A DNA stretch of 64,000 nucleotides from Psammoneis japonica (lineage: Eukaryota). Positions within the stretch are counted from its first letter, which is position 1, and each line of letters begins with the position of its first letter. This document shows, one piece after another, positions 938 through 62,038 of the stretch. The translations under genes were made by a program, and so were the position numbers. Under the pieces are notes generated by a model. That model had not been told where the DNA came from. It did not search any database and saw only the letters and a program-made list of their open reading frames with translations. The DNA is taken from positions 703,607 through 767,606 of the forward strand of contig QPGO01000005.1 in NCBI GenBank assembly GCA_008632985.1, given 5' to 3'.

Positions 938-1236
938 GCGAATAATGGCGTCATAGACGAGTGAATTCAGATTTGCTATTAGACCATGGAGCAATCATTG
1001 TCTTGCTCGTAGTCATGGATTCGATTCGGAGCTAGTAGTGTTACGCACGCTACATGGGTCGAGGGGGACTCATCGCCGCATTGATCTTTCGTGGCGTCTC
1101 TCTCGAGAGAGCTTGTGTAGCCAGCATTTACCACTGTAGGTCCGCTTCATAGATCGCGTGCGCGACCGATCTCTACTCAATTGATGGCTGCTGTAGCTGG
1201 GGCCCTGCCGGCACTCTCTCTAGCTAGCCATCTCTA

Positions 1237-4200
1237 CCCCAGAGCCACATGAAGGTGGGCTTTGGCAGATTTGCCATCTTGTTGTTGTTGAGACAAGCCA
1301 GCTGCGGTGCTGACAAGCTTGACTCTTGTCGTGCCAAACTTTTCTTCCAGCACCAGTGTTGCCACTTGGCTGCAGCAGATGTCATTTTCTTCAACTGCTT
1401 TTCTTGCCATCTTGTTGCAGGCTGCCCACACCATGTTCTTGAAGTTGAGCAGTGGCTGTCTCTGTCTGTTGCCAGTTTCAACAGCTTGTCAACAAACTCA
1501 ACCATCTGGTCAACGTGCAGGGGCACACTCCAGTTGGCCAGCTCAGCATGTGGCCAGGCTTGGTTGCCACCTTTTCTTTCTCAAACAGCTGATCAAATGC
1601 ATGTTGCAAAGCAGTGGCAGCTGGCTGCAGGGACACATGGGGCTTGTGACACTGCAAATTTGTGGGGACAATGCATTGATGCGCTGCACAACATGCTCAA
1701 AGAGCAACATTGTCAGCAGCGCCCCTTTCAAGAAATCTGCCTCAGTGCCCCACCCAAAAATCAACAACAATCATGTGATGTCTTGAGGTGCTGGCAAAGT
1801 TCAGCAAGTTTTGGTCAAGACCTGCAACACATCATCCTGCCTCTAAAAAGGAGTGCACACATCAAGCGCAACATCTTGTGACTGCTCACCACCCTGCTGA
1901 GCTGCTTGGCAAAACTTTTTTGTGTGCCAGATTAAAACCTGGGCTTTCCACCTTTCTCACAGCACCAAGGGACAAGTTTGTGGTCTGATGTCAAATGAGC
2001 CAAAAACAAAATCAACACTCAACCACTTCTTTGGCAGAGGAATGGTGCTGCACCTCCAAGCTGGACTCTGAAACATGGATTGGGCCGCATTTTACATGTG
2101 ATGCTTGGGGTGCTGGTCAGCTCTCACCAAGCCACTTGGCAGTGTGCTTTGCATGCGCTCTTTTCTTTGCGCACTTTTCCATCAGCAGCAGCCACTTTTG
2201 CAGCAATGCAATGCTTTTGTGCTGTTGTGCTCTCTTCCTTTTCAACAAGCACAGGAGTCAAGTGGCTGGCACATGGCACAAAAACACCAACAGCACAAAG
2301 ACCAGCTTTTGCCGGCTCTTCAACAAGTTGATTTTTGAGGGCCAACAAGCCAACAATTTGTTCAGAATTCTGGCAGTCTTCTGCACAACATGGCAGTTTG
2401 GACAGACCACTTGTGCACCCAGTTCTTGCATTTTTTTGTGCCTGCAGAAATTGTGCATGGCACAATCTCTGCAGAATGAATTGCACTGTCTGACTTTGGC
2501 AACAACTTCTCTCCATAAAAAAAAAATTGGCTCACAAAAGGACAAAGTGCACAAAATGAAAAGTGCTGCTGACAACTGTGACAAGCACCATCAGACAAAA
2601 TGGCCTCCACTTGCTCATTTTAAGGAGACAACTCCAGATGTGCTGCAGCAGCGTTGGTGGTTGAAATGAGGCAAGTGGAGATCAAAGAGTCAGACAGAAA
2701 ACATGGGGCTGCATTGTGCAAGAGGTTTTGCTGGATTTTTCCATGGGGTGAGGAAGCAACAGGAGTGGTGGTCCCCAACACCAACAAGGGAAGCATTGGA
2801 GATGGGCAAAGGACAGCATGAACACTTGCTAGATGCCTTGCTTGGGGGCTGGCTTGGATGGAATTGTCCTGGGGTGTCAAGTTGCTTGTCCATCACTGAA
2901 AAGACAGTGCTTGGTGGGTTCAAACACTGCATCATGGGCATGCCACTGCTGCAACTGTGGCTGAAGATGGCAAAGAAGTTTTCACAATGGCAAAGCAGGA
3001 GTCAATGGTGCATGCCTCAATGTTGCAGATTGGCGAGCCACTCTGGTGCAACAGCAGAGATGAGTCAATGCAGTGCCAGACTGCCAATGACAACACAAAC
3101 AATTCAGAGTGCAGCAAATGAGCAGCATTTGCCAGTTTGGAGCAGCTTGGCTTGAATCATTTGTTGCTGTTTGTTCATGCCTCAACAACCTTGAAGCATC
3201 TGGAGCAAATTGATGATGAAAAGGTTGCTGTGCAGATCAAGCCGGTTGCCACAAAAAGCATGCTGGGTGCCACAGTGGGGAGGCGCCTGCCCACACCAAG
3301 GATGTTCCAAGCTGGAAGTCAAGGATCTGAGGTTGCAAAGCAAGTCTTGATGAAAAAGCTGAAAAAAGAAGAGCCAAGCACCTCCAGATGAGGAGAGGGT
3401 GAATGACTTGGGTGAGCACATGCTGAAGGTGATGATTTTGGTGACCGCAATGGTGGAAAAAAGATGCGTGATTTGAAGAGTGATGTAAAGAGAAATGAGC
3501 TCACCTCAAATCATGCAAAGATGTGGTGGCCAAGCTCAGGAAGGATCATGATGGGTGGCCATGCCAGAAATGAGAAAGGAAATGCTTGAAGTCAGAAAAC
3601 AATCTGAGCTTGCCAGTGCAAAGGTGGAGCAGAAATGTGGCTTGTCATGTGTGCAGGACCCTTGTTGGTCAGTTGGATGCCTTGTTCTCTTTAAACAGCA
3701 AACTGACCCAGTGCACCCCAAGAAAGCATGACCAAAACCATGACTGTCAGCTCCAAAATCAAAAAATTGAAGACAACTCAGCTGCAGTCATGCAGAAGGA
3801 AAAGGTTGCAAAGGGGCACAAGCGGGCTGCAAGCTGCAAAACCTGGCCGCAAAAAGTCCTGCACGACAGCTTTTTACAAAGGCAGTGAAATTAGAAAGAT
3901 GAGAGAACTTCAAAGATGGCAAAAGTGTGCAATGCCACAGTTTCTTCATGCTCTGCCCCCTTTTTCCTTTTGTTTGGATTTGACACTTGATGACAGCACC
4001 ATCATGATGACAATGCTGCGAAGGTTTGCCGCTGCACTGTTGTCTGTTGTTGATGTGACATTGTTGTTTTCGTTTGTGCTGCAAGATTTGTGAGATGTCA
4101 TTGTTGTGTGGAAGTGTGCAAAAAGCCTTGGTGCACTTCAGATTGGCGCCACATCTTGTGCACAAAGTTCCTGTGTGTGCACGAGCAAAACCATCATGAC

Positions 4201-4780
4201 AACAGAGCCCGTCAGACTTTTTGGAAAAGCCAGCCATCCAGTTTTTGCTCTGGTCTGTCCATCCTTCAAAATGCCTGCAGAGTCTGGCAGGCTTTCCTCA
4301 CATGTCTGTGCCCACCTGAGTGAGCCCAGCACTTGTCTTGTGCATGTCACTTGCCCATTTGGCACATGGAGGGCGAGCATCAGATGTGTCAGATTTTGCT
4401 GTCAGAGAGACCGACCTCACCCACCATCAATGGCTCTGGTTGGTGAGCACCTTCTCTGCATTGTTTTGCAACTTGGCTGATGCTGCAGCTGCTTTTGAAG
4501 CTCTTTCTCCCACCAGATGTTGTGCTGTGCCTGCAGCTGGTCTCGCGCAACATTTTCTGAATGGGGGCAAACAAGTGGCTCTGCTCTGCATTTTGCATGG
4601 TTTGGAGCCAAAGAAAGAGAGCACCAAGGACAAAAAGAGAAAGCACAGTGGTGGCAAAAATTGCAGTGACAAGAAGGCGCGCTGCTGCCATGTCCTCACC
4701 AGCACTGTGCTTGCTGTGTGTTGCCACGCGGTTGGTGCCGGCTTGGCATGTGACAGTGGCAGAATGCGCTCTTTTTGAGA
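1237..4780. other. Degenerate block depleted of both TpA and CpG, with unidentifiable gene-like remnants
   Basis: By eye there are no TA dinucleotides in 1237-1843 and only about 5 CG. Translations are Cys/His/Gln-rich in all six frames. A signal-anchor-like remnant lies at 4389-4727 (-). Confidence 0.75.
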
Positions 4781-5122
4781 AAGGTGGGCAGTTCCCCCAT
4801 GATCATCGTGCTTCGGTTGTGGGGAGTGTGTTTTTGTTTGGGTGGGTGAAGGGGTTCGAACGGGAATCATTTCTGCATTCACAAACAACAGATGCACCGT
4901 GATCAGCTCTCCCTCGTGCGAGTGGTCGCGCGCGCATGCGGTGGGCAGGGCCCACATCATTGCAAGATCTAGCTTGAGATGACTTGACAAAAGTTGTGTG
5001 AGAACCGAGGAGAGAACCCATCATCGCTGATGCAGCCCAAACGGCAGGTCGTCAAATGGTGTGGGTTAGCGCACATGACGACGTTGCTGACGCAGACGGT
5101 CATCCTTTAAGCAAGTAGCCCC

Positions 5123-5151
5123 ATGTGCGCTATAAAGTTTATAGCGCACAT
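5123..5151. repeat. Perfect hairpin ATGTGCGCTATAAA-G-TTTATAGCGCACAT within subterminal repeats
   Basis: 14-bp arms with a 1-nt loop. The TGTGCGCTA-like motif recurs at about 5066-5076, 5187-5201 and 5209-5224. Confidence 0.85.
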
Positions 5152-5693
5152 AAAGAGCTGCTGACGTTATAGGGTCATTCTGCTTCTATGTGCGCTACAA
5201 ATCTCCCCTGTGTACGCTATAAAGTGACATCCACAATTATGAAGAAAGACAGAAAGGTAATGGGTCAATTTTCAGTTTGGATTACCGACATACATCGATG
5301 AATGTGCATGCTTCGCAGGCACCACGCAACAAACTGCAGCACCACAATGATGCGTGCCGCCGGTGTCTCACTTTACGGCATGATGTCTCAATGACGCTTT
5401 TGCCGATTTTCCTGTTTGTTTTTGATTTCTTAACAAAAATTGTGCAATTCATCCGAAAAGCTTGGCGCTGTGGCTTCTTGACTTTGCTCATGCCATCCTC
5501 ACAAAAGCAAGCCTTTGTTTCCTTGCCCTGCTTCTGCTTTCTGCTGCTGCTCACCTTGGGCTTTGGCATGTGCTGGAGATCATTTCTGGCCACCTCAGAT
5601 GCTGCATGCCTGTGAACTTGTCTGTGCTTTTTGTCTTTTCTTTTTGTTGTTGCTCTGGCTTCTTGCTGTTCCAACACACAGAGCACTGCTTTT

Positions 5694-5694
<1 letters not shown>

Positions 5695-5724
<30 letters not shown>
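5695..5724. repeat. (TGC)10 microsatellite
   Basis: Directly visible. Confidence 0.95.
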
Positions 5725-5727
<3 letters not shown>

Positions 5728-6924
5728 TTTGTTCATGATCATCATGCTGGGGAGCTCCTTGCCAAAGCTGCAAAGAGATGATTTTCCAGATCTGCAACAA
5801 GCATCAAAGCAGCAGTTCTTTGTGAGGCAGCTCTCAACAACAACTGGGCCAAACCCCAAAGTGGTGCTGAGAACACTTTGCAGTTTGCAAGGTGCTGCTT
5901 GGTCATGGACAACATGCAGAGTTTCTCAGCTGGCTTGCTGTGGTGGCAATGAGCTCTTGCTGGGTTGTGCTGTGTAGAGCATCTCAGCTGCTTGTGCTTT
6001 TGGCACCCAAAGCCGTCTCACAAGTTTCTCTTTTGGCATCTTGTTCATCCCTTCCACCTGTTTCTTCAAGATGCAGCATGCAGCAGGGCTCTCTGTGAGA
6101 GCTGGCATGTGGTGCCATCCTGGCTTCTCTTGCAGCCATCAGAGCTGTGGCTGGACACACTGGTTCTGCACAAACTCTCCTTGTCTGCATGCCACACTTT
6201 GTTTCACACCAAATTGTGGGGCAAATCTCAACTGGCACAGCTGTCACACACCCCAAAATGGCATTGAAAACACTTTGTGGGGTGCTGTTTGGCTGCGGAC
6301 AACCTTCGGCCTTCTTGGCTGGGGCCAGCTGGGGGGCAGCAGCCAGCTCTCTTGCTGCTGGGTCACAGCACAACACGCTGCAGAGCATCTCTCAACTGCT
6401 GCTTGCTTTTGGTGCCCAAAACAGTCTCACAATTTTCCCTTTTTGGCATTTTGTTCACCCCTTCCACCCAGTTCTTCAGTGCACAGCACACACCACTCTC
6501 CTCTCTGCACCCCGGCTCTTGCCCCTCTTCCTCTGGCTCTCTGCGCATCTTTTTTGCTTCTTGCTGCTTTGCCTTTTGTTGCAGCCACTGGTGCTGTGGC
6601 CAGACACTCTCTGTTTTGGCACAAGCTCCTTGTCTGCATGTTGCACTTTGCTTCAAATGTTGTTCCTTGTCCTTTTGAGATGAGATGCCTTTGGTGATGG
6701 GTGCTTGTGCAGAGTTGTTTGTTCTCCCCACTTTAACATCCGGGTCACTTTTTCGAGTTGACTCTCGCTTCGCTCGAGTCGAGTCAATCAAAACCTGCTG
6801 CCCACACCAGGTAAAAAAATGCCGCCCAAACCCAACAGTTTCCCATGTGTCTAATGCGTTGGTTGGCACACACATGTCAGAGAGGGCACACTCGGTCATA
6901 GAGCACATGTGCCTGTCTCACTCA

Positions 6925-6936
6925 CTCTTCCCCTCC
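6925..6936 (-). other. Polypurine tract of the Gypsy element
   Basis: Purine run (reverse complement of ctcttcccctcc) immediately before the TG start of the 3' LTR on the minus strand. Confidence 0.85.
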
Positions 6937-7032
6937 ATGGTGCAAGGCACACACGCACCATTGGAACCACTTGACTAAAATTCAAAACCCACCACGCACG
7001 GAGAAGGGAACCCAGACGTTGGGAAGAAACCC

Positions 7033-10000
7033 TCAACTCCGACACGGCACCACACGGCGAACATTGATTTGCTCGACAACGTGCAGTGCTCGCAGTGCCG
7101 AAACAGTCCCGTTGGCGTGGACTTGTGCAATTCGAAACGGACCACAAGCTCGTTCTTCTAACTTCCAAGGATCCACCAACTTGACCAACACATCTTGACC
7201 AACTGGGCAATCGCAGGAATGTCGCTTCACATTCTGTCGTCGTAGATTCTCGTCGATCAACACTTGTCGGTTGGCTTGTGTCGTTGCGAGGTCGGAGACA
7301 ATGGGCAGGTCCAAAATCACATCACGTTGGAACACGAGAGCTCCACTTGAAACACCCGTGGACCTTGAGTGGGAGCATCGCAAAGCACAAGAGGCTGCAG
7401 CAAGGGCATCGTCCACAATCTGTTCGGCCTGTTGAACATTCAGAGGTGGGTTGGCAACAACCACAGTGCGCAAGATGTCAGCTGCCGTCTGGTGCATTCG
7501 TTCACAAATGGAGTTGGCTGCAGGATTTCGAGACGTCATTGGAGCATCAGCAACACCCCGCTTGATTCAGTGACATTTGGAATTCCCAACCAATGAACTC
7601 TCCACCATTGTCATGGATGCATTGATTCGGTCTGGGGCAACGAGCTAACCAAAGGTTGCAAAAACTTGTCAGTCACATGCTGAGAAGTTTTGTTGTCAAT
7701 GCGTGCAAGTTCAGTCAATCCAGTGACAGTGTCAATGCAAGTGAGAGTGCTGAATTCAATCTCTTGATCTTGAATCGGGATCTTCCATGGTCCAATGAGA
7801 TCAACTGCTGCTTCCGTCCACGGAGCCAACGGTGCTTGACGTTGAGGCAACTCTCCATGTCCAGGACCCAGTTGTTTAAATCATTGACATGCATTGCAAA
7901 CAAATTCATTACAACGTCGCCGCAAAGCAGGATGGTGCATGTGAGTCCGGATGCTTTCATGCAATCGCACGACTCCACAATGGCCCAATGTGCGATGATG
8001 CCATGCAACCATGTCAGGCAACAATGCAGCAGGAGTGCAAATCTTCCAGGCTCCAGGCGGATCATTCAATTGCAAATGACAACAAATCAAGGGACGATGG
8101 TTCACGATCTTGACCACAAACTGCTGCGGATTTTGTTGTCTTTGCTGGTTCAGTTGGAGGTCTTCGAACTGGAGCTGTTGGATCCTTAGCATCTCAGCAG
8201 GATCCGGCATCTTGTCCAACGTTGGATGATTCAAAAAGCATTCAAATAATTCAGGCTTGTCAAGCAAAGAGGAAAAGACGGCGTGAGACTCATCAGAAGG
8301 ATCAACAGGAGCACGGCAACACTTGAACCTGCAAGCGCCCAATTCCAAATCTTCTTCGTCCTCGGTCGAATCCAACTTTTCAAAATGAATGATTTTTCCT
8401 TTGCATTCACCACTTGGCCCAAGGCTCTTCCCCTCCGAAGGCGGATCCACATGTGGCAGACGAGAAAAACAATCGGCGAGCACGTCATCCTTGCCTTCGA
8501 CACACTCAAACGCAGGTGCGAAATCTTCGAGGAACAGGCGCCAACGAAGGACGCGCTGTGTGTTCAAAGTGCAAAAGGTGAGATTTTTGTGATCAGCATG
8601 CACAGTGATGTCAGCACCAAGTGGCATCGAACGAAACTCCTTGAAGCACATGACGACAGCCAGCAGTTCTTTTTCCATTGTCAAGTGGTTTTGTTGAGCT
8701 GCCGAAAGCTTTTTAGACCAATGCGCCACTGGCTTGCCATCTTGATTGACAGCGGCGCCCATCTGGTGGTCTGATGCATCGGTGCAAACATGGAATGGTG
8801 GGCCATGGTTGGGGCAGGCCATCAATGCTTCCGCCGCGATCACTGCTTTCATTTCATCAAACGCTTTCTGACATGATTCCGTCCATTGGAACTGACTCTT
8901 GCCTGTCAATTCAGTCAGAGGTGCAAGTGGGTGAGAACAGCGAGGCCACACATTGCGACAATGAGTTGCTGCACTGAGAAACGATCGGAGTTGAGCAGTG
9001 TTCCGTGGAGGTTGCATTCGCAGAATCGCTTCGACCTTTTTCTTCCATGGTTCAATGCCAGTCAGAGCAAGCCAATGCCCTAAGAAATCGGTTTCTTGAA
9101 CACACCACTCGCATTTCAACGGATTAACTTTTAAACCATTCTCTTCGAGACGATGCAGCACCTTGTCAAGACAAGAGAGATGGCAATCAAAGTCAGCATC
9201 AAACGCTCCAATGTCATCAACATAAGTTTCGACATCCAAACCATGTGAGATCTTTTCAATGATGGACTGAGCAATGTCTGGAGCTGGCTTCAATCCCATG
9301 GCCATGCGACAGCACTGAAACTTTCCGCAGGGAGTTGTGATGGTGGCAAGCTCCTTGCTTTCATCGTCCAATTCCAAATTACAGTGGAACACAGTAAGAT
9401 CCAATTTCATGAAGAATTTGTAGCCCGCTCTCCGCTGCAGCACATCTTGAACAACCGGCAGAGGACACACTTTCCGCTTGAGGACCTTGTTGAGCTCTCG
9501 GAAATCTGACACCCATCACACTCGACCGTCCTTCTTCAGAGCAATGAAAGTGCCAGCTGCCCATTCCGCAGGTCCACATGGTCGCAACACACCGAGGTTC
9601 ACCAAGTGCTTTGGTTCCTTTTTGAACGCTTCTTCATTAACTTGAGCAACAGGAAACGGTTTTGAGTGACAAGGAACAGCGTTTTCATTCACTTCAAGGT
9701 GCACCTTTTCATGAGGATGATGGCCCAACGTTCCGTCAAACAAGGTCAAATGCTTCTCCAACACCGCTGGTGGTTTCTTCTTTTGTTCTTCCGTGAGATG
9801 GTCCAAATTCCGAACTGCCTCCGCTGGATCCGTTGCTTCATGCTTGGCATCAAGCACACAGGTGTCGCACCCGTCCTCGCATCCGCAGTCCGACTCGTCT
9901 TCATGATCTTCATCAAATTCATCCATTCGGTCTGAAGCAACATGCCAATTGTAGGACTTGGACCAATGACGAGGCTCCTTCATTGGGATCACGCGGTCTA

Positions 10001-10637
10001 ACCAATGCAGCGTTCTTGCATCGTAGTTCAAATTGAGGCCAATCTCATCCAAAAAGTCTCGACCCAAAATGACATCACACGCACACGGAGCATCGAACAC
10101 GTGAGCCACACAGCCGTCAACCCTCCTGGTCTTGTCGAATTCCGGTGGCACAATGTCGCTCAGGGCTGCCCAACGACCCGATTGGAAAGGACCTGCAATG
10201 GTTTGAAAAGCTCGGACTCCCTGTTCGTCAAGAGATGGCACGGCTCCTCGAGGTAAAACTTGAGACGAGATCATAGTGTGAGAACCACCTGAGTCAAACA
10301 AGACATGCATCACACGATTCAATTCGTGCCGCTGGATCGATTTTGCAACAAGCAGTGTAGATGGGACCAATGCAGTGCACGATGCTTGCGATTTCATTTT
10401 GGGGAGAGGAATGTGATGCTCAAATGCATCTTGATCGAACACGTCCCCCTCTTCATTCATGTAATTTTCTGCAGCATTTTCAAATTTAACAGGTGACAAT
10501 TCGTCAGGATTTTCAAAACAATCAAAAACAAAACATTCATCATTTCTTTCAGGTGGGACACAATCATTTTCATCAACAAATGCTTCTCTCACAGGCAATT
10601 GGGAGCACTCGGCTCCGGAGCATTCAGCTCCTTCTTC
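7033..10637 (-). pseudogene. pol: Gypsy pol (protease, RT, RNase H, integrase), disrupted
   Basis: PR 'VLFDSGGSHTMIS'; RT 'YVDD'; RNase H 'TDAS..EKELLA..DHKNL..LADCFSR'; IN 'H..LGH..CNAC', 'AVDLIGPW', 'NSICERMH', 'GPF'. In-frame TGA stops at about 9516 and 7881, plus a frameshift in IN. Confidence 0.93.
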
Positions 10638-11897
10638 TCAGAACTGCCGAGGAAACTGCCCGTCTGGCTGAAACCTCACCACACCTCCACAACGTGGAGG
10701 GCCTCGTCCGATCACATCGAAATGGCGCACATCACCACGAGGAGCTTCTCGAGCCTGGTTGTCATCATTCACATTGTCTGCTTGAGCAGCACATCCGTCG
10801 GCCTGACCTTGGCCTCCACGGTTGTTGTTTTCATCACAATGATGCTGACCACCACCTTGGTTGCCATTGTTGTTCTGGTGTCCATTGTTGTTGTTGTTGT
10901 GATGGGTGCCACGACCTCCTTGGTTCTGGTTGCCACGACCACCAAAGCGTCCACCGCCTCCACGGCCTTGTCCACGGCCTCCTTGGAAACGACCTCCACC
11001 TCGACCTCCACCGCCACAGCCTCCACCTCGACCGCCACGGTTTTGAGGCCCACGACAGTTGGGGTTGTTTGGATTGTCACAACACTGGCCCCACGCATGC
11101 CTTCCATGGTGCCATGGGACCGGACACGGATCGTTCGCCTTTGGTTGGCCCTTGCTGTCCTTCTTGTCGCGGTTGCCCTTTTTGTCACTAGAGTTCCCTC
11201 TGTTGCCATTGTTGGACTTGCGCTTCTTGTTGTCCTGACCATCGGCGAATGCCTTCTCATTGCTCATGTGGGCTTGGACATCCACCATCGAGTCCGTAAC
11301 AAGATTCTTGCCCGCACGAATGCAAGACTGCTGCCAGGTCAAAGGGAAGGTGTAGAAGATGATGTTTTTCTGCTCCTGCTCTGTGAGTTCAGGAACGGTT
11401 CCAGGCAAACGGTCAGTGTGACGAAACAAAGTTTCCATGCAATCAACATGAGTTTCTGATTCCACTGAACAGGGCTTTTTGCAAGCAGGCAAATGCATCT
11501 TCATCGTGTCGCGAGCTGTTGGTTTCACGCAGCGCAAATGGTGAGCCGAGACAGCCTGATTGAACCGAGCCACCGTCCGTTGATTCTGTTGGATGCCCGA
11601 GGCAACATTCTGCCATTTCGCCTCCGCAGCACCCTGAAGACAATCTTCGAAAGCATCAAATAATTCTGGTCCGGCATCACAATCGAGTTGTCTTGCCACC
11701 TTCCGGAACCCATCCTCCACATGCAATGATGATTCAATTCCATGCTCTCCTGTGAAAATGGGACACATTTTTGAAAGTTTAGCACCATCATCAAAGGTTT
11801 GAGTGAGCTTCACTTCCTGCAATTCTGAATCCACGAATTTGGTCTTATGCTCAATGCACGCTTTCTCCAAGGCTTCTTGACACATGGCGATGAACAA
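10638..11897 (-). CDS. gag: Gypsy gag (degenerate)
   Basis: 419-aa ORF upstream of pol with the knuckle-like 'CPVPWHHGRHAWGQC' followed by an RGG/N-rich tail. Confidence 0.8.
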   Translation of the reverse strand: MFIAMCQEALEKACIEHKTKFVDSELQEVKLTQTFDDGAKLSKMCPIFTGEHGIESSLHVEDGFRKVARQLDCDAGPELFDAFEDCLQGAAEAKWQNVASGIQQNQRTVARFNQAVSAHHLRCVKPTARDTMKMHLPACKKPCSVESETHVDCMETLFRHTDRLPGTVPELTEQEQKNIIFYTFPLTWQQSCIRAGKNLVTDSMVDVQAHMSNEKAFADGQDNKKRKSNNGNRGNSSDKKGNRDKKDSKGQPKANDPCPVPWHHGRHAWGQCCDNPNNPNCRGPQNRGGRGGGCGGGGRGGGRFQGGRGQGRGGGGRFGGRGNQNQGGRGTHHNNNNNGHQNNNGNQGGGQHHCDENNNRGGQGQADGCAAQADNVNDDNQAREAPRGDVRHFDVIGRGPPRCGGVVRFQPDGQFPRQF

Positions 11898-12212
11898 TTT
11901 CAGCGATCAAACACAATCAACAATCCACAAGATGAACGAAACAAGGCGTTCCCAATTGATCCACACAACGAGAACAATTGGTAACCAAACAAGAACGAAT
12001 TCAACAGTAGCAACACGAGCTTCGAGTTCAAACAAACGCTGCTCTGAATCGCCAATTTCACGAGCATGACTGCGCTGCTCTTCTGATTGACTTCGAATGA
12101 AATTTTCTGCACGCGCTCGTAAATGGATTTTCTCTCTCCTCGATGACACTCTTCGCATTGTCATAAAACTGATGATGCAATGAACAAGCTATAACAACGA
12201 CTGTAATTACAG

Positions 12213-12387
12213 TGCAAGATCTAGCTTGAGATGACTTGATAAAAGTTGTGGGAGAACCGAGGAGAGAACCCATCATCGCTGATGCAGCCCAAACCTAACG
12301 GTTTCCCGTATATCTAATACGTTAGTTAATATACATATATCAGAGAGGGCACACTCGGTCATAGAGTACATGTGCCTATCTCATTCA
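12213..12387 (-). repeat. 5' LTR (175 bp), TpA-rich and apparently unmutated
   Basis: TG...CA ends; matches the split LTR; flanked by TSD ATCAT. Confidence 0.93.
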
Positions 12388-12759
12388 ATCATGGCCCTCA
12401 CAGGGTTGCCCCCCCTTAAATAAAAATAATGCACTTCCTCATCACTGAATGTCACTCCTTCTCCAAGATAAACTGGAAGGCAATTGTTTTATGAGTCATT
12501 ATGTCTCAGATTGATGTCAATAAAGACTACAGAGACTCTCACAATGACTCAAACCAAAGTCTTTTTCAGCACATCGGAAGGCAGACAAAATTAGGGCACA
12601 TGTTTTTGTTCACACCTGATCACGTTCGGCATCGAGCAATTTCATTCGAACAAGGCAAAACGAAGTCCATTGAAAAGGAAGCTATTCCGGCTCGAAAGCT
12701 TTGAATCTCTTTGGGCTCGAACTGCTTGTTGTTTCATAATCTGTCGAACTCAGAAGAAC

Positions 12760-20199: not shown

Positions 20200-22024
20200 A
20201 TGTCGATGTTGTTGGAAACTACAATTGGAGATGTAGTGATTGACTTGGATATCGAGGGTAGTCCAGAGCTCGCTCGGAATGTTTTGAAACTAGCCAAGGC
20301 TCGCCACTGCACCAACACGCTGACTCACAACATTTTGCCTCAACGACATTGTCAACGCGGAGACCCCAAGGGCAATGGCAGTGGCGGCGGCTGTATCTGT
20401 GGACTGATTGACGCTACAACAAACAAAACGAGCATCGAAGAGAGTAAAAAACGATTTTTGAAAACAAAAGGACGCTTCTTGAGCAAGGAGGAACTGCAAC
20501 AGCGAGGGCGGGTCGTGGCAACTGAAATGAAAACGGGGTGCCGGATGCCATTGGATCTCAGCTCATAATTACGTTGGAACAGGGACCTTTGCAAGCTCTG
20601 GATGGGCTCATGGTGGAATCATCGAACAGTGCTGAACAACAGCAACAGCAATTCTTGTCGTTGGGAACGGCAGCGGAGGATGAAGACGGTGTGCCAGACA
20701 AGCTTCAAGCGGCTCATTGCGATGCCGATGGACGACCGTTTGTGGGTGTGCACATTGTGCGTGCTTTGGTGATTTCTGATGCATTTGATGATCCTCCTGG
20801 AATGGAAGACTTGCTCAAACATCGTGGCGTTGCAATGGAAGATGACAGAGTGACGGCGTCTCCTGAACACATTCGTCCTCCAGAAGAAGTCGCAGAGCAC
20901 CGCATTCAAGCAAATGAAGTGGACGAAGCGGAGGAGGAAGACGAAACTCACGAAAAGGCTGGACAACGAGAAATGGAGATTCACAAACGAGAAGACAAAT
21001 CGCGTGCCATCATTTTGGAAATGTTGGGGGACTTGCCATCTGCCGGTGAGTTTGCACTTTTGCAAGCGTTCGACTTGTGTGTGTTTTTGCTTCTTGTTCT
21101 CTTAGCTGCACTGTGTTTTGCTTTACAGACATCAAGGCTCCCGAGAATGTTTTGTTTGTTTGCAAATTGAATCCAATGACGGATGTTGATCCAGACGTCA
21201 AGGCTGAAATCATTCGAGACAATGAAGCTGGCGCGTCTCTCCAGTGTGCTTTTGTCTAGTTTGCCGACAAGCAGAAGTGTGTGGAGGCACACTTTAAAAT
21301 GAAGAGTGCACTTGTCGATGACCAGAGCATCAAGGTGGACTTTTCACAGAGTGCAGCAAAAGTGTGGAACAAGCATGTGCAGCGAATGAGAGCACCGGGA
21401 GGACCACAAAAGTCTCCCAAACGGAATCGACAGCAAGGTGGCAATGGTCAAAGGAGACACAACAGTCAGTCGGGACATCAGCAGCAACGCCCACCACAGC
21501 GTCGTAACGATTGTCGCAACGGAGACAGAGAAGTGCGCAGATCGCCACCGGGAGACGCAAGGGATGGTCGTCATGTGCGACAGATGCAGAGACCGTGGTG
21601 ATCACGGACGCGACAGGCCGGCATCAGGTGGGAATCGACACCACGATGATCATCAAAGAGACGGCTCACCGCATTCACACAGGCAACACAACAATGACGA
21701 TGACCACTGCAATTGACAGCGCAGACTTGACAAAGAGGATCATTCAATGCAAAGAAGCTGTTCCCATTCCTTCGACAGATGCTCACCCGGCCAGTCGCAG
21801 CAGTGAGAGTGATCTTAGTCGCAGCCCCAAACATCGGAGGAAGAAACATCACAAGAAACGCCACAGAGATCGCCATCGACACAGACACCGTGATGATGGA
21901 GGTGACGATCGTCACAGTCGGTGCAGACACCACCATGATTGAGAGGATGAAGCACCGTCACGACAAGAAGCACAAGAGGAAAAGGAAACGCCACAGCAGG
22001 ACTCGCAGTGTCAATGAAAGCTAG
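20200..22024 (+). pseudogene. PPIL4: Cyclophilin-RRM protein PPIL4/CYP59, frameshifted and TpA-depleted
   Basis: 'MSMLLETTIGDVVIDL', '[29 protein letters not shown]' (retained intron about 21046-21128), 'EAHFKMKSALVDDQSIKVDFSQS', RS/K-rich tail. Frameshifts, a stop and an RRM deletion. Confidence 0.88.
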
Positions 22025-22029
22025 AGTGA

Positions 22030-23640
22030 TTAAATCTTAGGTTTGTGTTGGCATCAGCAAGGTCGGAGCTCAGCTCCCCCACCCATTGCGCTCTTGCATC
22101 ACTTGTGACTGTTCTTGCGTGTCGAAAATCAAAGTGAGGGTGTCCTTGCGCAATGGCGATTGAATGGAAACCAGGCACGTCTTGTTCTTCAGACAACATG
22201 TGTGCACACTGAGAACAGTCATTTGCTCCAGCATTCTCTTGTTCACAGCCGGCCTCTTTGTTGTTTCTGTCGCACTGAGTGATGCAGCTGCTTGCCCAAA
22301 GAGCGACACACCCGACATGGCCGAAGCGACATCAATGTGAAGTCGTGCAAACAACCCAGTGCCAAAACAGTCCAGCACATGTCATCACAAGCCTCAGGGA
22401 ACAGCCCCACCGCAACGAATGTCCCAGCGTGGGCCCCAGGCAAGGAAGCATGCAACGACATTGAAAGCACTGCGACCGTCATCGCAGTCCATGGATGTGC
22501 ACACGGAACAACCAACACGCAAGCATGGATTGCTGCACTGTGCTTTCAGTCTTTCTGCTTCTCTTTTGCAAACGTTCAAAGTGGTGTTTCGAATGTTTGG
22601 AACACTCCAATGCCAAAATTTGACAGAGATCGGTCGCGCAGGATGGACGCGTTCCAGGTCCAGGTGGGACCTCGCACCACTGAACTGTGACATCGACAGT
22701 TTTTTGAGTCTCGTCGTATGTCGCGCACGTAGATTTCTACGTGATTTTTTCGACATTTTGTGTCATTTTACGGTGCACTTGTTGAGCGATCCGTCCAACA
22801 ACTTTTGACATTTTTTGTTACAGCGCGATTCTATGATGTCTCTAGAATCGCGTAGGGCAGGCGAAGTTGCAAAAACGTCGAGTGGCAAGAGGCATAATTG
22901 CACCACAAACTTGGGCGTTTATTTGATGTTGAAGATAAATGCATCCATTAATTAAATTCTTGTACTGCGGAGCTCGCACGCAGAATTCTACGGGCCCAAT
23001 GTCACACGGAGTCCCACCTGGGGCTGGAACGCGTCGATGACATTGCCTCAAGAGCACCATCAAAAGATGGAGCTCAAGCTTTTGCGCATCTTCAGAGTGA
23101 ACTGTCACTCAAAAAAAAGCAAAAGGGGGGATGCACTGCGGAGACAACAAGAAAACTTGCGAGTCAACCGCGTGCTGAGCCAACACTCCCTGTGAGTGAA
23201 GACTTGCCGCACCATGTCACTGATGTGACGGAAAACCCCAAACCCCGCATTCCGTCAATGGCATGATCTGCTTGGCGAGCTTTTGCTGCTTTGCAGACGA
23301 ACGCTGCTGTCTGTTTCAACAGCTGTGACCTGACGGGTCAAGCGAACAGGCAACTTCCTGCGGTCAAAGACACAGGAGTGGCATGGACTCCAGGCCGGAG
23401 ACACGCGTTCGATTTGCCCCGACCTCCGGACTCAACTGGCAACACCTGCGCCACCTGGAGACAACACACCATCAAGCAAAATGAGTTGTGGAATGCCAAA
23501 CGAGAGCGAGTGCTCAATCCAGGGGAAGGGCGAGCCATCCTTGGCGATTGCGGCATTCAAGCTTGGCGAACAACAAACACATCGTGCGAGACGACGAGTT
23601 GTGATTGAAAGCGTGAAAGAATTTCCGAGAGATTTTGCAT
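22030..23640. other. Largely TpA-depleted degenerate segment (membrane-protein-like remnant at 22070-22560 on -, then hairpin-containing TE-like DNA)
   Basis: TA is nearly absent in 22045-22710 and 23000-23645. Hairpins at about 22726-22743 and 22824-22852. No family recognised. Confidence 0.45.
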
Positions 23641-23990
23641 GGCCGTTGCTAAATTTCTCAATCACTGTCATTTTTGTGTGTGTTTGTAAATTAATGCCAT
23701 GAATTCGCATGTAGAAGAATCGTAGGAAATCAGTGCTTTCATTAACATTACCAATTCCTACGTACGCGTTACGGCAACCGTCGAAAACGCAAAAAAAAAA
23801 AAACTGCCGTGTGCTCTGATGTTATTCGTTGCTGCGCGTCGCGCGCCGCGCGCTCTCAACGCTCGCGGTCTTTTTGGCATGTTTTATTTGGCGGAATAAG
23901 CTTCCGTCCTCCTTCCTCCTTCTGCTGTTCCCCTCCGTTCTCAATAGGCTCTTTAACTCTGTACTTCGTTTATAAAAGTGAGAATCGACA

Positions 23991-25778
23991 ATGACTGAAC
24001 ATCCTTACGGAACGACGTTGCTCAGCCGAAAGAAACCCGAGAATTTGAAGCTTTGGGGTCCAAATGGCGTCGGTTACATCGATGTGGCTTCAACTGTATG
24101 CACAAGCGACGGTCAGTGTCCGTTTTACGAGTACAAGAAGGACGCGACACACGAAGGAGCTCTGCAAACGCCGATTCACCTGCTGATTGCTTCGTTTCGA
24201 GATCAGCTTTGCCCTCGTACCCTTCACAATGCCTTTAGCCATGCGGAGAATCCCAAGCGTATATTTATTCGGGTCATTGAGCAAACCAAACCCGACAGCG
24301 ATCTGGTCGACGACGCTGGCTGCTTCCAACGGTACTGTGCGGAATTCAACACGAATTGTAAGGAGTATGAGAATCAAGTCAGAACAGTTCATGTACGTCT
24401 ATAATGGTGTCTTGACTTATCTCTTATCTATGCTGAGTGCATGACTTACTCAATATCTCTTTGGTGATACGCCATACCCAGCTTGATGCTTCAAAAGCAA
24501 AAGGTCCAACCGATGCTAGAAGCAAGTTGAGTGCCATGATAAATTGGGATTTTGTACACCGCTTCGAGCCTTCCGAGCTGGACTTTCACCCAGTTCAACT
24601 TGAAGATTTTTGCATGCAAACAGACTCGCATATGGATTTCTCAGATAACTACGACACGGAGTTAATATACATGCACCACAGGACAGAAAACGATTACGCA
24701 GTTCTTTCAACTTATGTTGCTGATATTAGCCAGAACAATCAAGATATACGGGTAACTCCCAACCTGTGCAGTAAGTGCGCCAAGTGTCTCCCTCTTTACC
24801 TTTGTGCATACCATGCAAGCACATTGCCTAACCATACCGCTTTCTTGTTTCTATCGTTTCAGTGGTCGAGTTCACTACCACTATTCGCAACTGGGGAACG
24901 AAAGAGTGTCGGAACTTGGTGAAGCCAAAGCTCACGAATGCCATGTGGGGAGCAGGCTTATCGTTTCATCGATGCCATGCTGAGCTTAACGTTCCAGTAG
25001 ATCCGTATCTAGATAAAGTATTTGATGGAGAAGAGGGTAGTCGTGGGATCCGATTCTTTACTCATGGATACGACGTTTATACACCGGATCGCGTTTTGGT
25101 GAGTTTGGCGAGGCGTTAGCAACGCAATATTACCAAGGTTGCGTACCTTGGACACTCTCTTGCTCATTCCACTTTCGTTTTGTGCTCTGACAGGTTACTC
25201 ATGACTATAAGAAGCACCAGTCGAACCCAGTAGTTCACTCCTGGGGTGGAAACAGACTCCGCGGAGGACAGAAAGGCGAAATCCGTGATAGTTGGAAGTT
25301 TACGAAAGCAATCGAAATGGAAAGACCCAAACTCAACACGCTTGGTGTGAAACGAGTCAACATGCTGTTAGACATTGGTCCGCAGGACTACAGTGCCGAG
25401 TCGCTCAAAGAAGAGCTCGATAATATTAGGTTTGGGCGATTCGGGCTTGGCAAGAAGCGATCCCTCGAGCAAGTTGCCAAGTTCACTGGCATTGATCTCC
25501 GTGGTAGAAAAATGGTTGAGAACAAATGCGGAAATCTTGAGTGGGTTCCTTTTGAAAAGAGTGACAATTATGGCGTTGAAGAAATCCTCTCTAGAGGGCT
25601 TACTGGTGGCAGTGTCGCACCAGAAGACGTTCCAGATGTGCGTGGAGTGGCGCCATCAACAAAGGGGCAAATCCAGCAGTGGAATTTGGTGGTCGGCATT
25701 ATTTTGCTGGGCCTAGTAGGGCTGAAGCTTTTCAGCCGCCGCCTCGACGCGAGAAAGGGGCAGAGGCACAAGAACTAA
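23991..25778 (+). CDS. GT60/Gnt1-like (Skp1-hydroxyproline) N-acetylglucosaminyltransferase family protein; 3 introns
   Basis: 'IASFRD', 'AKGPTDAR', 'MQTDSHMDF', 'WGAGLSF', 'VPVDPYL..VFDGEE'. GT-AG introns at about 24393-24481, 24770-24862 and 25100-25193. C-terminal TM helix; N-terminus uncertain. Confidence 0.85.
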
Positions 25779-26053: not shown

Positions 26054-29000
26054 CTAATGTTGTTCAATGCTTTCTTGGAAGGCACATGCCATCACGTCTG
26101 CAACAATCCATGGAAAGCTAAACAGAGCCACAGGTTTGTTCTTGATGGCCCGAGAGTGGCTACCGGCGCCCATTTCGGGATGATAAGTGACAACGTAATA
26201 GGCGGCGCTGAGCATGCGGGCCCACTTCTTCAACTTGCATACGTGTGGCGTTGAAAGCCTGCCATCGGCACTGAATTCTGCTCTGTCACCTCCAGTTATG
26301 CTTTTCGTTGTAACAGCCATTTCGATCTGACCGATTAGGTCTTCCTCTAGCTCCTTCTGAATGTCCTCACCGTCGACGCAGCGTACAGAGTCAATATGAT
26401 CAGCCTTTTCTAAAACGCTACGAAAAAAGTTCTGTCGGAATTCCATTCGCAACTCACGGGTTTGGCGCTTGACTTCTTCACAAAACTTGTAGCGTCCCCG
26501 TTTATGCAGTCTGTGATATTTTAGAATGCATCCGGTGAGGAGCTCTCCCTCGCTATGAAGTTTGTAGCGGTTCATCAAGGCTATCAATCTATCTTCGTAG
26601 CCATAACGATGCTCGATAGCAATCGACAACAAGGCCGATTGGTCGTTGCCAATGTCGAATCCGAGGATCAATGGAATGTCGGGCATGTATATTCGTGAAA
26701 GAAGCTTGTTGTAGTCTTCTTCTTGACGAGTCATACAAGTTATTTGCCCATGTCTGTCGTACCTTCGACCGGCTAGAGCAATGCACTTTTCCCCAGACTC
26801 CTTATCTTTCCGAAGCTGGTTTGTGATTTCATCGTACAGCTTACCAACTACACTGTCACAGTGATATGACATTGTGTCGGCTCGTTCTCGCCAGTGAGCC
26901 CGTGGGGCGTCTTTCGGAATCTTCACTGTGTCTGGAACTTCAGCGGGGATACCGCTTTTGGGAAAATCCACAGCAATGGAGTGTAATTCGGCAAGGCGTA
27001 AACACTCCTGACAATCCGCACCCTTCTTTGCGGCGTGGTCAAGCCATAGCATGGAAATGCGACCCAAGTTATCAGCCTTGGCGTGGTTGAGAAAATGCTC
27101 AATTAGATGACTGTCTTCGATCTTATCCACTTCGGGGGCCTCACCTTGTGCATCAAAGTTGTGTGGTTTGCGGTTTACCTCTTGAAGAAGTTGAGAGCAG
27201 TAGTTTACTTTTTTGCTGGTCAAAGACAACAATGTGCCGCCCGAAGCCCGCCATTCCTTCTCTGACACCTTCTTACAGTTGTTCCACTTGTTCAGAAAGA
27301 GAGATTCATCCCAGCAAACGGCAAATTGGTCACCATCCAAGTCACTGCCACTCATTTTGTCTGCTTCAGGTCGCAGGCCACGCTGCGAAAATAATATCAT
27401 ATTTCGGTGGCTATGCAGCTCCGGGATGTCAATAGCCAACAACATTCGGACATCTCCGGGATGCATAACAGGGTGTTTTGTAACCATTAAAGGCCCCGTT
27501 AGAATCTGGAAGGGTTCGTCTTGGCAAGTCGGATCTTTTTCTGGAGAAGCTCCCAAAGGTCGCAGCTGGACAAAAACACAGCCCTCGGGAATCAATATTG
27601 TTTCATCGAGGCCACCCATTAGCACTGCACCTTTGTCGACAAATATCCTGCTCTTCTTTCGAAGCTGCATCAGATGGTGGCTTCGAATTGCGTGAGCACA
27701 TGAAAATAAGAAAGGTTCTTGATGAGGAGAAAGACCGCAAGAGATCATGTGTATAAGCATCGAGGTCATGCTACTGTCGGGACCGCTGAGACGTGGGATC
27801 ATCCTTGAAGCCTTCTCTCCACACATACTAGCATTTCATTCAGATCGTCTAGCATTCGTTGCTGCATCCGAAGGAAGGTTATATCGGGCACGTCATGGAC
27901 ACCGAAGAACATGACGATTTAAATAGTAAGGCACGTGGCTTCCGACGGAGATCACTTCCACGTGCCTGTATGGCGCCTTAAATTTCACCATACTCGGCCG
28001 AAAGAGAATCTTGCTGTTGCGGAGGTAGAGGGAGGGATAACGACGCCGCAATGCTTTGAGATTCCATGCTGTTAGTGTACCTTTAGCTCCACCGCATCGT
28101 ATCTGAATAATTGAGACGACACTGGTATTCTTCGGTGCAAAAGGAACACTTCTCAGCAGCGTTCGCAACATCGTTTCACAAATGATACCTGTTCCGTCGG
28201 AATGGCACATTTCCTTCCCGTCAGAAGCGGTGCACAAGATGTCGGGTAGTGCGTCGCACACCCGGAGTCGCGAGGATGAATGAGAATTGATGGAGGCGTC
28301 AGTGTCAACATGGGGTGCTTGGACCGTTGTTGAGAAACATTGGCCCATCCGAGCAGCATATTTTGACGGAGTTTTGCACATTGTGAAGTCGCCCATCCAG
28401 CGTCTAACCTCATCTATTCCACTTCCATTCGGACTGCTAACCATCCACAGCGAAAGCTCCTTCAGTTGACTGGAAGAATAAGACAGAAAGCGATAATGCA
28501 TGCCATTGATTTCGAAACCACCAAGAATAATAGATGAAATTCTGCTGCAAACCCATCTCGATAGCTCATCGTTGTACAACCTGTCTCCATTTTCCTCTCC
28601 GATCGATACACGTAAGAAACTAAGTTGTGAATAGCCTTTGACATTAACAAACTCACGCAGGACTCGGTTACTCATTTCTATCCCAAAGCCACACGCAACG
28701 ACACGAGTCGGCGTTACAAGGGCGCGTGGCACCTCCATGCAGTAAGGTGGAACTTGAGCTGACTTATTTTCATCATCGACGTCTTCCTCTTCTTCTAACG
28801 GCAGTATCAACAAGTCAAGCACACCAGCGGGATGAAGAGTATGCCCCTGCATTCCCAGCATTGACGTCAAAGCCTGATAATCGCCAATTTCGATAGCGTG
28901 AGCAGGACATCGTATTGAATCCGTCGTGAATCACCACAAGTACAATTTACTCACCCGACGACCATGTTCGGGATTTGATCGATTGAGAATGTCACACATA

Positions 29001-60665: not shown

Positions 60666-60739
60666 CTGCACAGATGGTCTCTGGAGACCATCTGTGCAGG
60701 CGATGGTGCACAGATGGTCTCTGGAGACCATCTGTGCAC
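60666..60739. repeat. Tandem pair of identical 32-bp hairpins TGCACAGATGGTCTC-TG-GAGACCATCTGTGCA
   Basis: Copies at 60667-60698 and 60707-60738. Confidence 0.95.
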
Positions 60740-61028
60740 AAGTGGGGGTAAGAACGTCAAAGGCGTCTGACATGTTTGACACAATGAGGTCTTTCTAGAC
60801 ACTTCAAAGTGGTCAATTAATGGGATGACCAAAAGGCGCCAAAAAATTGAGTTGTGCATGGCATGCTGTGCACATGCGCGATTTTGTCGACAATTCGCAA
60901 AAATTTCTGTGCATGGCATGCCATGCACAGCGCGAGCAGGGCTAGCTAGAGTCTGCCGTTTTCATTGCCATTGTTGCGATTCGTTGCGATTGGACTTGCA
61001 TGGCACACGCTGTCGGCATCATTTGTCC

Positions 61029-62038
61029 ATGATGCCATCTCTCATCAATGAAAAAGATGCTCCAACTGCACAGGCCCAGGACGGGTTGGAACCACCAGCA
61101 ACCACTTCAGCAGGCACAATCTTCTGCTCGCATCACAACAACCCACGCAAGAAGGACAAGTCCAGCGACGAGCCGAGCAACGAGGCAAAAGCGAGTGAGG
61201 TGGACCACGTCAATCGACTTGCTGCTGAGCTTGAGGCCTCCTTTTTGGAAGATTCAAATGAGGATGAGGCAGAAGAGCGCGAAGACGAATCCATGATGCT
61301 CCAAGCATGCGCAGAAATGCAAGACAAAGCAGACTGAACCGAAGATGGCCACAAGACGGCGGTCGCAGCATTTGACGTTTTTGCCAAAAAAACAGGATGT
61401 CCACCAGTCCATCAGTTGGAACGAAAGCATCTGCGTGGAGAGACTCTCACTGTGCCGAGCTGCAGCAAATTGATGAGGCAGTTCTGTGCTTTCTCAATGG
61501 AGTGCAAGATTGAACATGAAGGTGCTCGCAAGGGGACTCATTGGAAGCCCAAGTCGCAGGCACAATGTGATTCTGGTGTGCACATGGTGCTCAAGAAGAA
61601 GTTGGGGCATGGAGCACTTTACAAAAAATCCGAGCATGACGAACTCAACAAATCTCTAAAAGCAAGGGCCCGCGTGCGCTGTTTGCAAGTGAGGAGAAGA
61701 AGCACCTCAATGGCAGCAATCATCCTCAAGCAAAGGATCATGACAACTGCATGGCTTGGTGGGACAGGGCTTGCAAGATGTTGAAATCCGTGTCTCTCAA
61801 GCACATTTTCAATTTGGTTGAGCAGCACAACAAAGCCGCGCCCTTGCACAACAAGCTGGTTGATGAAAAGAAGGCAGCATCAACTCGCAGCTTCAAAGCT
61901 AGCACAAGTGAGGAGAGGAAGGTCATTGATGGAAAATCCAAATTGGAAAACAAAGTGGGAGCTGTTGTTTCGGCATTGGAAAAACTGCAAACGATGATGA
62001 ACAAGATTGAGAAAGAGGGCAAGAGGGCGGCGGCTTAA
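61029..62038 (+). pseudogene. Degenerate ORF, possibly the N-terminal (core-binding) part of a Crypton-type tyrosine recombinase
   Basis: Reading through TGA at 61335 and reverting H/C to Y gives 'RTEDGYKTAVAAFDVF...LMRQFCAF...GTYWKPKSQAQY.SGV', a pattern reminiscent of YR core-binding domains. No catalytic motifs seen. Confidence 0.3.

Follow-up and report, generated by a model that had tools for sequence, protein, structure and literature searches.

TpA-specific hypermutation of an integrated Ty3/Gypsy retrotransposon in the diatom Psammoneis japonica

The window analysed here is a 64,000-nucleotide stretch of the Psammoneis japonica genome (GenBank assembly GCA_008632985.1, contig QPGO01000005.1, forward-strand positions 703,607 to 767,606; coordinates below count from its first letter). 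On its minus strand, at 4961–12387, it carries a single Ty3/Gypsy long terminal repeat (LTR) retrotransposon with LTRs of 175 nt and TG..CA ends. We found that almost all TpA dinucleotides of this element were converted to TpG or CpA by A:T>G:C transitions, that TpA was the ancestral state, and that the conversion took place after integration; the affected DNA has sharp borders, and the TA steps that survive show a biased sequence context. We regard it as probable that the full reading holds, namely that this is a post-integration TpA-to-TpG/CpA hypermutation targeted by position or chromatin, of the kind described for the chlorarachniophyte Bigelowiella natans (Mettrop et al., bioRxiv 10.64898/2026.01.13.699255, 2026 preprint), and that it is a deaminase-based defence.

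Results

The two LTRs of a single insertion differ mainly at TpA

The element has the TG..CA LTRs, the 5-bp target-site duplication, the polypurine tract and the order of reverse transcriptase (RT), RNase H and integrase that define a Ty3/Gypsy element, and the named relatives of its pol are diatoms. The same ATCAT stands on both sides (4956–4960 and 12388–12392), which indicates one insertion event and a true LTR pair, and the polypurine tract adjoins the left LTR, which is thus the 3′ LTR. Pfam matches were obtained in one of the seven element open reading frames (ORFs) tested; in the frame at 7881–9512 these are RVT_1 (3e-17), RT_RNaseH_2 (8e-24) and a weak match to Integrase_H2C2 (20.0 bits, under the cut-off of 25.5). 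Neither an integrase core nor a tRNA primer-binding site was recognised in the element.

The left LTR is interrupted after base 82 by a 1.79-kb insertion (5043–6831), with a 12-nt duplication on either side (TGCAGCCCAAAC / TGCCGCCCAAAC; copies at 5031–5042 and 6820–6831). We rebuilt this LTR by joining 4961–5042 and 6832–6924 into 175 nt and compared it with the right LTR (12213–12387). An earlier reading of this DNA, made from the sequence alone (hereafter the sequence-only reading), had reported 18 differences in 175 sites, and our recount gave the same number and the same make-up: 13 fall at TpA dinucleotides of the right LTR, two are of the CpG type (CG in the right LTR, CA in the left), two are other transitions (6866/12329 and 6921/12384), and one is a transversion (4999/12251). 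The reported TpA counts, 16 in the right LTR and 3 in the left, were reproduced as well. At the 13 changed TpA sites the left LTR reads TG seven times and CA six times. The 32 nt that form TA hold 13 of the 18 differences and the other 143 nt hold five (Fisher p = 1e-7); 13 of the 15 A:T>G:C differences lie at TpA, and 13 of 16 TpA sites have changed vs 2 of 6 CpG sites. The differences are unevenly spread, 2 of them (including a TA>CA change at 4988) in the first 82 nt and the other 16 in the 93 nt that follow, because the TA sites themselves are so distributed. The observed/expected ratios (o/e) of TA, CA and TG are 1.13, 1.12 and 1.02 in the right LTR; in the left LTR, TA stands at 0.27 and CA/TG at 1.70/1.88. 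When the sequences are collapsed to purines and pyrimidines, the identity of the diverged part (6832–6924 against 12295–12387) rises from 84% to 99%.

TpA is the ancestral state

The LTR pair alone is equally parsimonious in both directions, and in the opposite polarity the TA-poor sequence would be ancestral and the right LTR would have been mutated from CpA to TpA, in the manner of fungal repeat-induced point mutation (RIP). Polarity was tested via the protein by comparing the frame at 7881–9512 with 60 homologues, which gave 281 columns that are at least 60% conserved. At the 18 conserved Tyr columns the element's pol reads Cys (8), His (8) or Tyr (2), whereas the other conserved residues are kept (Trp 8/8, His 6/6, Gln 8/8, Gly 15/16). 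Tyr columns that now read Cys or His mean that TAY became TGY or CAY, and hence that TA is ancestral. The composition of pol has shifted to the same effect (Tyr 0.4% and Cys plus His 10.5%, against medians of 3.9% and 4.7% over 120 homologues), and the three long ORFs of the internal region hold only 6 Tyr in 1322 aa. First-position A>G changes following T account for further replacements (Ile to Val five times, Met to Val twice, plus Lys to Glu, Asn to Asp and Thr to Ala). The density of TA is 56.8 ± 10.5 per kb in 30 related pol genes and 6.7 per kb in the element's pol.

Other observations also contradict the opposite polarity, which with 16 of 18 conserved Tyr columns reading Cys or His is scarcely credible. 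The right LTR, with the near-normal CA and TG ratios given above, lacks the CA/TG depletion that such a history would leave; at position 12311 the T of the right LTR is shared by other LTR copies in 413 of 492 depth units; and TA o/e lies between 0.45 and 1.0 (median 0.71) in 79 related metagenome loci. The direction proposed by the sequence-only reading, TpA to TpG/CpA, is thereby borne out. Selection for avoidance of UpA was ruled out as a cause, as Tyr residues of conserved catalytic domains have been lost.

Both strands were changed, and the change followed integration

The two LTRs were copied from one template, yet one has lost 13 of 16 TA and the other has kept 16, which dates the change to after integration. 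Because identical LTRs met opposite fates, sequence alone, whether read through homology pairing or through small RNAs, cannot select the target, and targeting is dependent on position or chromatin. The two products are about equally frequent both in the LTR (7 TG to 6 CA) and at the Tyr codons (8 Cys to 8 His), which indicates that both DNA strands are involved.

These results bear on a model in which the transcript was edited from A to I by an ADAR- or ADAT-like enzyme preferring a 5′ U and the edits were fixed by reverse transcription before integration. Such editing resembles what we see in its A>G change after a 5′ T, as a preference of ADAR for a 5′ U is cited in the Discussion of the B. 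natans preprint (Mettrop et al., 2026), and it could account for a possible gain of TG over CA on the sense strand and for a nested element that was amplified once its body had lost TA. However, it predicts identical LTRs, a prediction already contradicted for this copy by the 13 differing TA sites, and it predicts A>G on the sense strand only, whereas His codons, which require T>C, are as frequent as Cys codons. A PPIL4-like copy that is not a retroelement and is apparently interrupted by an intron (see below) is affected too. We consider RNA editing very unlikely.

TpA is erased in three sharp-edged blocks

The sequence-only reading had placed the hypermutation at the LTR pair. The signature is real there, but the pair is only the edge of an erased block of 11 kb, and the window holds two more such blocks. 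TpA o/e is 0.02–0.15 in all 1-kb bins from ~1.3 to 12.1 kb and is low again at ~20.6–23.6 kb and 60.9–62.0 kb; elsewhere in the window it is 0.5–0.7. Pooled, the erased blocks contain 66 TA in 14,357 bp (o/e 0.07), with CA at 1.64, TG at 1.60 and CG at 0.57, vs 1893 TA in 46,903 bp (o/e 0.60) in the gene-bearing remainder. The sums balance: the blocks are short of 35.8 TA and 22.3 CG per kb (~58 per kb together) and carry an excess of 61.2 CA plus TG per kb. In this one window the depletion is thus confined to three sharp-edged blocks and the rest is normal. At the right edge of the element, 12009–12163 holds 1 TA (o/e 0.09) and 12164–12387 holds 21, and in the nested insertion 5043–5431 holds 20 and 5432–6819 holds 3; the former of these two nested segments is a TA-normal island within block 1.

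Stop codons are affected in the same way. The six frames of block 1 contain 493 TGA, 60 TAA and 35 TAG codons, against 1358, 602 and 658 in normal DNA, and 9.5 kb of erased DNA carry 29 ORFs of at least 100 aa on both strands, many of them overlapping. Since the loss of TAA and TAG leaves spurious long ORFs, ORF length is no guide to integrity in this DNA; the pol has long frames and is nevertheless dead. Self-BLAST, both plain and after purine/pyrimidine collapse, revealed no additional hidden LTR pairs, and a Pfam search of 79 stop-to-stop segments from the other erased blocks gave a cyclophilin fragment as the sole match above the cut-off; block 3 had no Pfam match. A near-perfect palindrome of 72 nt lies at 60667–60738, just outside block 3.

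The DNA that escaped has its own features. The spared 5′ LTR and its leader of ~50 nt adjoin normal host DNA, and the spared part of the nested element is its first 389 nt. CG o/e differs between spared DNA and its erased neighbour in the nested element (1.01 vs 0.16), in block 2 (1.59 vs ~0.8) and between the right and left LTRs (0.75 vs 0.37); a lower CpG content of erased DNA would fit decay through CpG methylation. Judged from base composition, the mutator may follow methylated or silenced chromatin and stop at promoter-like DNA. A simple model in which sparing marks transcription starts serves only as a lead; it fits the Gypsy element, the nested element and, in part, the PPIL4-like copy, but not block 3. 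Two TA-normal islands, at 22691–23000 (TA o/e 0.61, CG o/e 1.59) and 23601–24000, have a CpG o/e of ~1.6 and directly abut TA-free DNA; in composition they look like unmethylated promoters of the CpG-island type. As for the claim that the mutator acts on repeated or silenced DNA, its first half agrees with our data, as the erased blocks hold repeats and the gene-bearing DNA is normal, and its second half is deduced from the CpG values just given.

A nested retroposon and a PPIL4-like gene copy are erased likewise

The insertion that splits the left LTR had no Pfam match. X1 contigs (from a public run described below) cover it at a depth of 560–710, against ~60 on the unique flanks, with 1–3 differences, which corresponds to ~10 near-identical genomic copies of the body of the nested element. 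This non-coding family seems to have been amplified after losing its TA. Beyond its spared head, the element (5432–6819) has a TA o/e of 0.04 and a CG o/e of 0.16. Within it, the two copies of a tandem duplication differ by 17 CA<->TG double differences vs 1 AC<->GT when aligned, which indicates that ancestral TA sites were resolved independently in each copy. A segment of 150 nt is common to 5323–5471 and 62424–62572 (minus strand), with 86% identity (91% after purine/pyrimidine collapse); one copy lies at the TA-normal head of the nested insertion, the other next to block 3. By self-BLAST the nested element and the flank of block 3 share nothing beyond this segment.

The cyclophilin fragment in block 2 belongs to a copy of a PPIL4-like gene that is colinear with residues 1–72, 134–233 and 290–324 of human PPIL4 over three frames, with an intron-like gap. 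A conserved YY has become HC and a conserved SI(F/Y)G has become CICG. TA o/e is 0.40 over the first 400 nt of the copy and 0.08 beyond. Gene-like DNA that is not a transposon is therefore affected as well; this copy is possibly a dead duplicate.

Surviving TA steps have a biased context

Among the 66 spared TA steps, TTAA, GTAA, CTAA, TTAG and CTAG are over-represented 2.4- to 3.6-fold, whereas no TA survives on the plus strand in CTAC, CTAT, GTAT, ATAC, ATAT or GTAC, although these contexts account for 832 of 1893 TA in the background. The bias is thus one in which TAY is wiped out and YTAR survives best. On the sense strand of the Gypsy element, 31 of 34 surviving TA have a 5′ pyrimidine, and all six retained Tyr codons do so too (CTAC four times, TTAC once, TTAT once). 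The idea that the Tyr of the YVDD motif was kept by selection is unsupported, as this codon sits in TTAT, a survivor-type context with a 5′ pyrimidine. The coordinates of the features are collected in Table 1.

Table 1. Features of the hypermutated element and of the TpA-erased blocks in the 64,000-nt window
Feature	Position	Strand	Evidence
Target-site duplication ATCAT, left copy	4956..4960	.	Identical to 12388–12392
3′ LTR, outer 82 nt, hypermutated copy	4961..5042	-	96% identity to 12210–12294
3′ LTR, inner 93 nt, hypermutated copy	6832..6924	-	16 differences vs 12295–12387
Polypurine tract, plus strand CTCTTCCCCTCC	6925..6936	-	Directly adjoins 3′ LTR
Ty3/Gypsy internal region, dead through hypermutation	6925..12212	-	Pfam domains
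RT-RNaseH-(integrase start) frame, the longest; used for polarity test	7881..9512	-	Pfam and Tyr columns
Unmutated patch: 5′ LTR (12213–12387) and ~50 nt leader	12164..12387	-	21 TA in 224 nt, o/e 1.0–1.1
Target-site duplication ATCAT, right copy	12388..12392	.	Single-copy X1 contig begins exactly at 12388
Nested poly-A retroposon-like insertion (5043–6819) and second 12-nt copy (6820–6831)	5043..6831	+	Poly-A at 6813–6819
Nested element, 5′ part, TA-normal and CpG-normal	5043..5431	+	TA o/e 0.71, CG o/e 1.01
Tandem duplication of ~410 nt inside nested element	5821..6655	+	Copies 5821–6206 vs 6215–6655
PPIL4-like (cyclophilin + RRM) gene copy, hypermutated, in block 2	20200..21400	+	Colinear with human PPIL4
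TpA-erased block 1: older repeats, Gypsy element, nested element	1236..12163	.	0–3 TA per 200 nt, 8–19 expected
TpA-erased block 2	20600..23600	.	TA o/e 0.08, 0.07 and 0.00 in erased parts
TpA-erased block 3	60860..61960	.	0–2 TA per 200 nt

Public contigs reproduce the TA-free sequence

The window was compared with contigs from the public run X1, in which 55% of the sampled words occur; runs X2 and X3 contain almost none of them. On the unique flanks the contigs have a depth of ~60, and one of them starts exactly at 12388 (depth 59.6, 0 differences). The sequence-only reading had asked whether the bases could be a base-calling error; X1 contigs reproduce the TA-free DNA at 4504–4892 at single-copy depth (61.8) with 1 difference, on a sequencing platform that is unrecorded. 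Across the window, 489 of 3182 X1 contigs are at least 99% alike to it. The other genomic copies in X1 vary at 734 places, of which 644 show transitions (145 A>G, 144 T>C, 190 C>T and 165 G>A); four classes of nearly equal size are what independent resolution of TA sites predicts.

An artefact would arise if a long-read platform misread modified TpA in repeats as C or G. The unrecorded platforms of both the assembly and X1, together with the 55% of sampled words that X1 holds, leave some room for it, but we give it very little credence: contigs at a k-mer depth of ~60 match the TA-free DNA with 0–1 differences, misreading on two strands should yield CG at former TA sites, where CpG is instead depleted, and similarly altered elements occur in separate public records. 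These are four more Tyr-erased Gypsy pols, one among 120 and three among 148 matches in public data; Tyr is replaced in them by His or Cys, and the control proteins keep their Tyr. At conserved Tyr columns, P0116 reads Cys at 9 and His at 3 of 20, P0245 His at 10 and Cys at 4 of 18, P0262 Cys at 5 and His at 3 of 14, and P0258 His at 6 and Cys at 3 of 13.

Neighbouring genes

Between the erased blocks, at 26054–28861 on the minus strand, lies a gene for an RNA-dependent RNA polymerase (RdRP), a component of the RNA interference pathway, with Pfam RdRP matches (3e-71 and 5e-51) over two ORFs; it is probably split by an intron. Three consecutive ORFs of 1204, 1193 and 1483 aa at 36579–48303 (minus strand), with VPS13 N-terminal and adaptor-binding domains, apparently form one giant VPS13-like gene. 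For a Leo1-like host gene, every one of the best named relatives comes from a diatom (Cylindrotheca, Nitzschia, Pseudo-nitzschia, Seminavis or Fragilaria; 45–57% identity).

Discussion

We propose the following course of events. The Ty3/Gypsy element would have inserted once, on the minus strand at 4961–12387, and afterwards, as chromosomal double-stranded DNA, would have been hit almost to saturation by a process that turns TpA into TpG or CpA, that is, by an A:T>G:C transition at the A of either strand in the palindromic TA step. The same process would have erased the neighbouring repeats, the nested poly-A family and the PPIL4-like copy and left ordinary genes untouched. Its origin would be enzymatic, most likely an adenine deamination that yields hypoxanthine and is carried out by a polynucleotide deaminase drawn to silenced chromatin, and it may act as a genome defence.

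The identity of the altered base admits another chemistry, as the TA step is palindromic and A>G on one strand is indistinguishable from T>C on the other. The thymine of TpA might be oxidised in silenced DNA by a dioxygenase of the TET/JBP type to 5-hydroxymethyluracil (5hmU) or 5-formyluracil (5fU), which would mispair with G and require no deamination of adenine. In dinoflagellate DNA, 5hmU prefers TpA. Our analysis gave no evidence that diatoms possess this base or enzyme, and the B. natans authors prefer, as a proposal, an ADAT2-like adenine deaminase (Mettrop et al., 2026); oxidation of thymine is in our view unlikely, although it deserves more weight than RNA editing or a sequencing artefact.

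Several observations weigh against the reading that we prefer, a position-targeted hypermutation by a deaminase. Relative to 30 relatives, the sense strand of the element has gained 42 TG per kb and only 10 CA per kb, an excess that conflicts with the balanced counts at the Tyr codons (8:8) and in the LTR (7:6). In the 79 related metagenome loci, TA o/e does not fall below 0.25 in any 1-kb window, although the Tyr-containing search patterns disfavoured mutated copies. The link to silencing is drawn from CpG decay, which in block 2 is weak (CG o/e 0.77–0.89). X1 comes from an unrecorded sequencing platform and may derive from the very sample that was assembled. Finally, among the 40 variable places listed out of 734, which are mostly private or CpG-type changes, only 5 have TA in the other copies, so that a TA-rich consensus does not follow from the reads by themselves.

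TpA-specific A:T>G:C hypermutation so far consists of one preprint on one rhizarian alga. The same signature, saturated, in the retrotransposons of a diatom would mean that at least two lineages of the stramenopile–alveolate–rhizarian (SAR) group have it, one of them an ecologically dominant and genetically tractable group, and its presence in unrelated algae suggests a wider genome-defence process. Beyond what mutation counts can tell, the LTR pair reveals a process that works on DNA already integrated and picks its targets by position or chromatin, not by sequence. An ancient defence throughout SAR, common to diatoms and chlorarachniophytes, in which a DNA deaminase at methylated or silenced chromatin erases TpA and spares promoter-proximal CpG-rich DNA, is a tentative and rather doubtful extension. 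Were it true, TpA erasure would extend to transposons, to integrated viruses and to any other DNA within such a domain, and the loss of TAA/TAG and of Tyr codons would kill coding elements, while non-coding retroposons with intact promoters would keep amplifying. In practice, gene predictors would report false genes in erased blocks, mutated copies escape ordinary similarity searches, and dating by LTR divergence is badly inflated in genomes with such hypermutation.

Comparison with known systems

Fungal RIP changes CpA to TpA, so that TA rises; it is triggered by homology, hits both copies of a repeat and creates stop codons. The process in P. japonica resembles RIP in being a DNA-level, dinucleotide-specific transition in repeats that affects both strands, kills transposons and leaves sharp compositional blocks. 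It differs in direction, as TpA falls (o/e 0.07) and CpA/TpG rise (1.64/1.60); in trigger, as one of two identical LTRs was hit rather than all copies; and in its effect on codons, as RIP makes stops, whereas here TAA and TAG are removed and long spurious ORFs are left behind. Hyper-editing by ADAR and editing by APOBEC3 act on RNA or minus-strand cDNA before integration, and they leave one-strand marks and identical LTRs. The likeness lies in a deaminase-type hypermutation of retroelements; here, however, the marks are on both strands and the LTRs differ. Decay of 5-methylcytosine at CpG likewise yields CA and TG, and the erased blocks are CpG-poor (o/e 0.57), with two CG>CA changes in the left LTR, but it cannot remove TA, and it is the slower process here (2 of 6 CpG vs 13 of 16 TpA).

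Our literature search found no report of such hypermutation in diatoms. A diatom DNMT4 related to RID is discussed by Hoguin et al. (2023; PMC9998398), and hypermutation is not mentioned in the portion of that paper available to us.

The sequence-only reading did not recognise the process as a described one, which no longer holds, as the B. natans preprint reports the same signature. There, integrated DNA of nucleocytoplasmic large DNA viruses (NCLDV) and virophages undergoes A:T>G:C hypermutation at TpA only (Mettrop et al., 2026). In mutation-accumulation lines, 230 of 231 mutations in two integrated viral regions were A>G or T>C; according to the authors, all GC-biased mutations were at TpA and yielded TpG or CpA, at a rate ~1000-fold over background, and TpA-poor, CpA- and TpG-rich clusters elsewhere in the genome were enriched in RT and DDE domains. 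A role in defence is proposed there (Mettrop et al., 2026). The process in P. japonica is probably of the same kind, by analogy: as far as the preprint text goes, both show A:T>G:C change only, at TpA only, with TpG and CpA as products, and both are confined to foreign or selfish DNA. They differ in host (a rhizarian there, a stramenopile here), in targets (integrated viruses there; an LTR retrotransposon, a poly-A retroposon and a gene copy here), in extent (a Rho of 0.45 in the NCLDV region as given there; a near-complete loss, with a TA o/e of 0.07, here) and in evidence, which comes from mutation-accumulation lines there and is read from sequence comparison here. New in P. japonica are the proof from an LTR pair that the process acts after integration and in dependence on position, the sparing of 5′ ends, the low CpG content of erased DNA, and the bias by which TAY is lost in preference to TAR.

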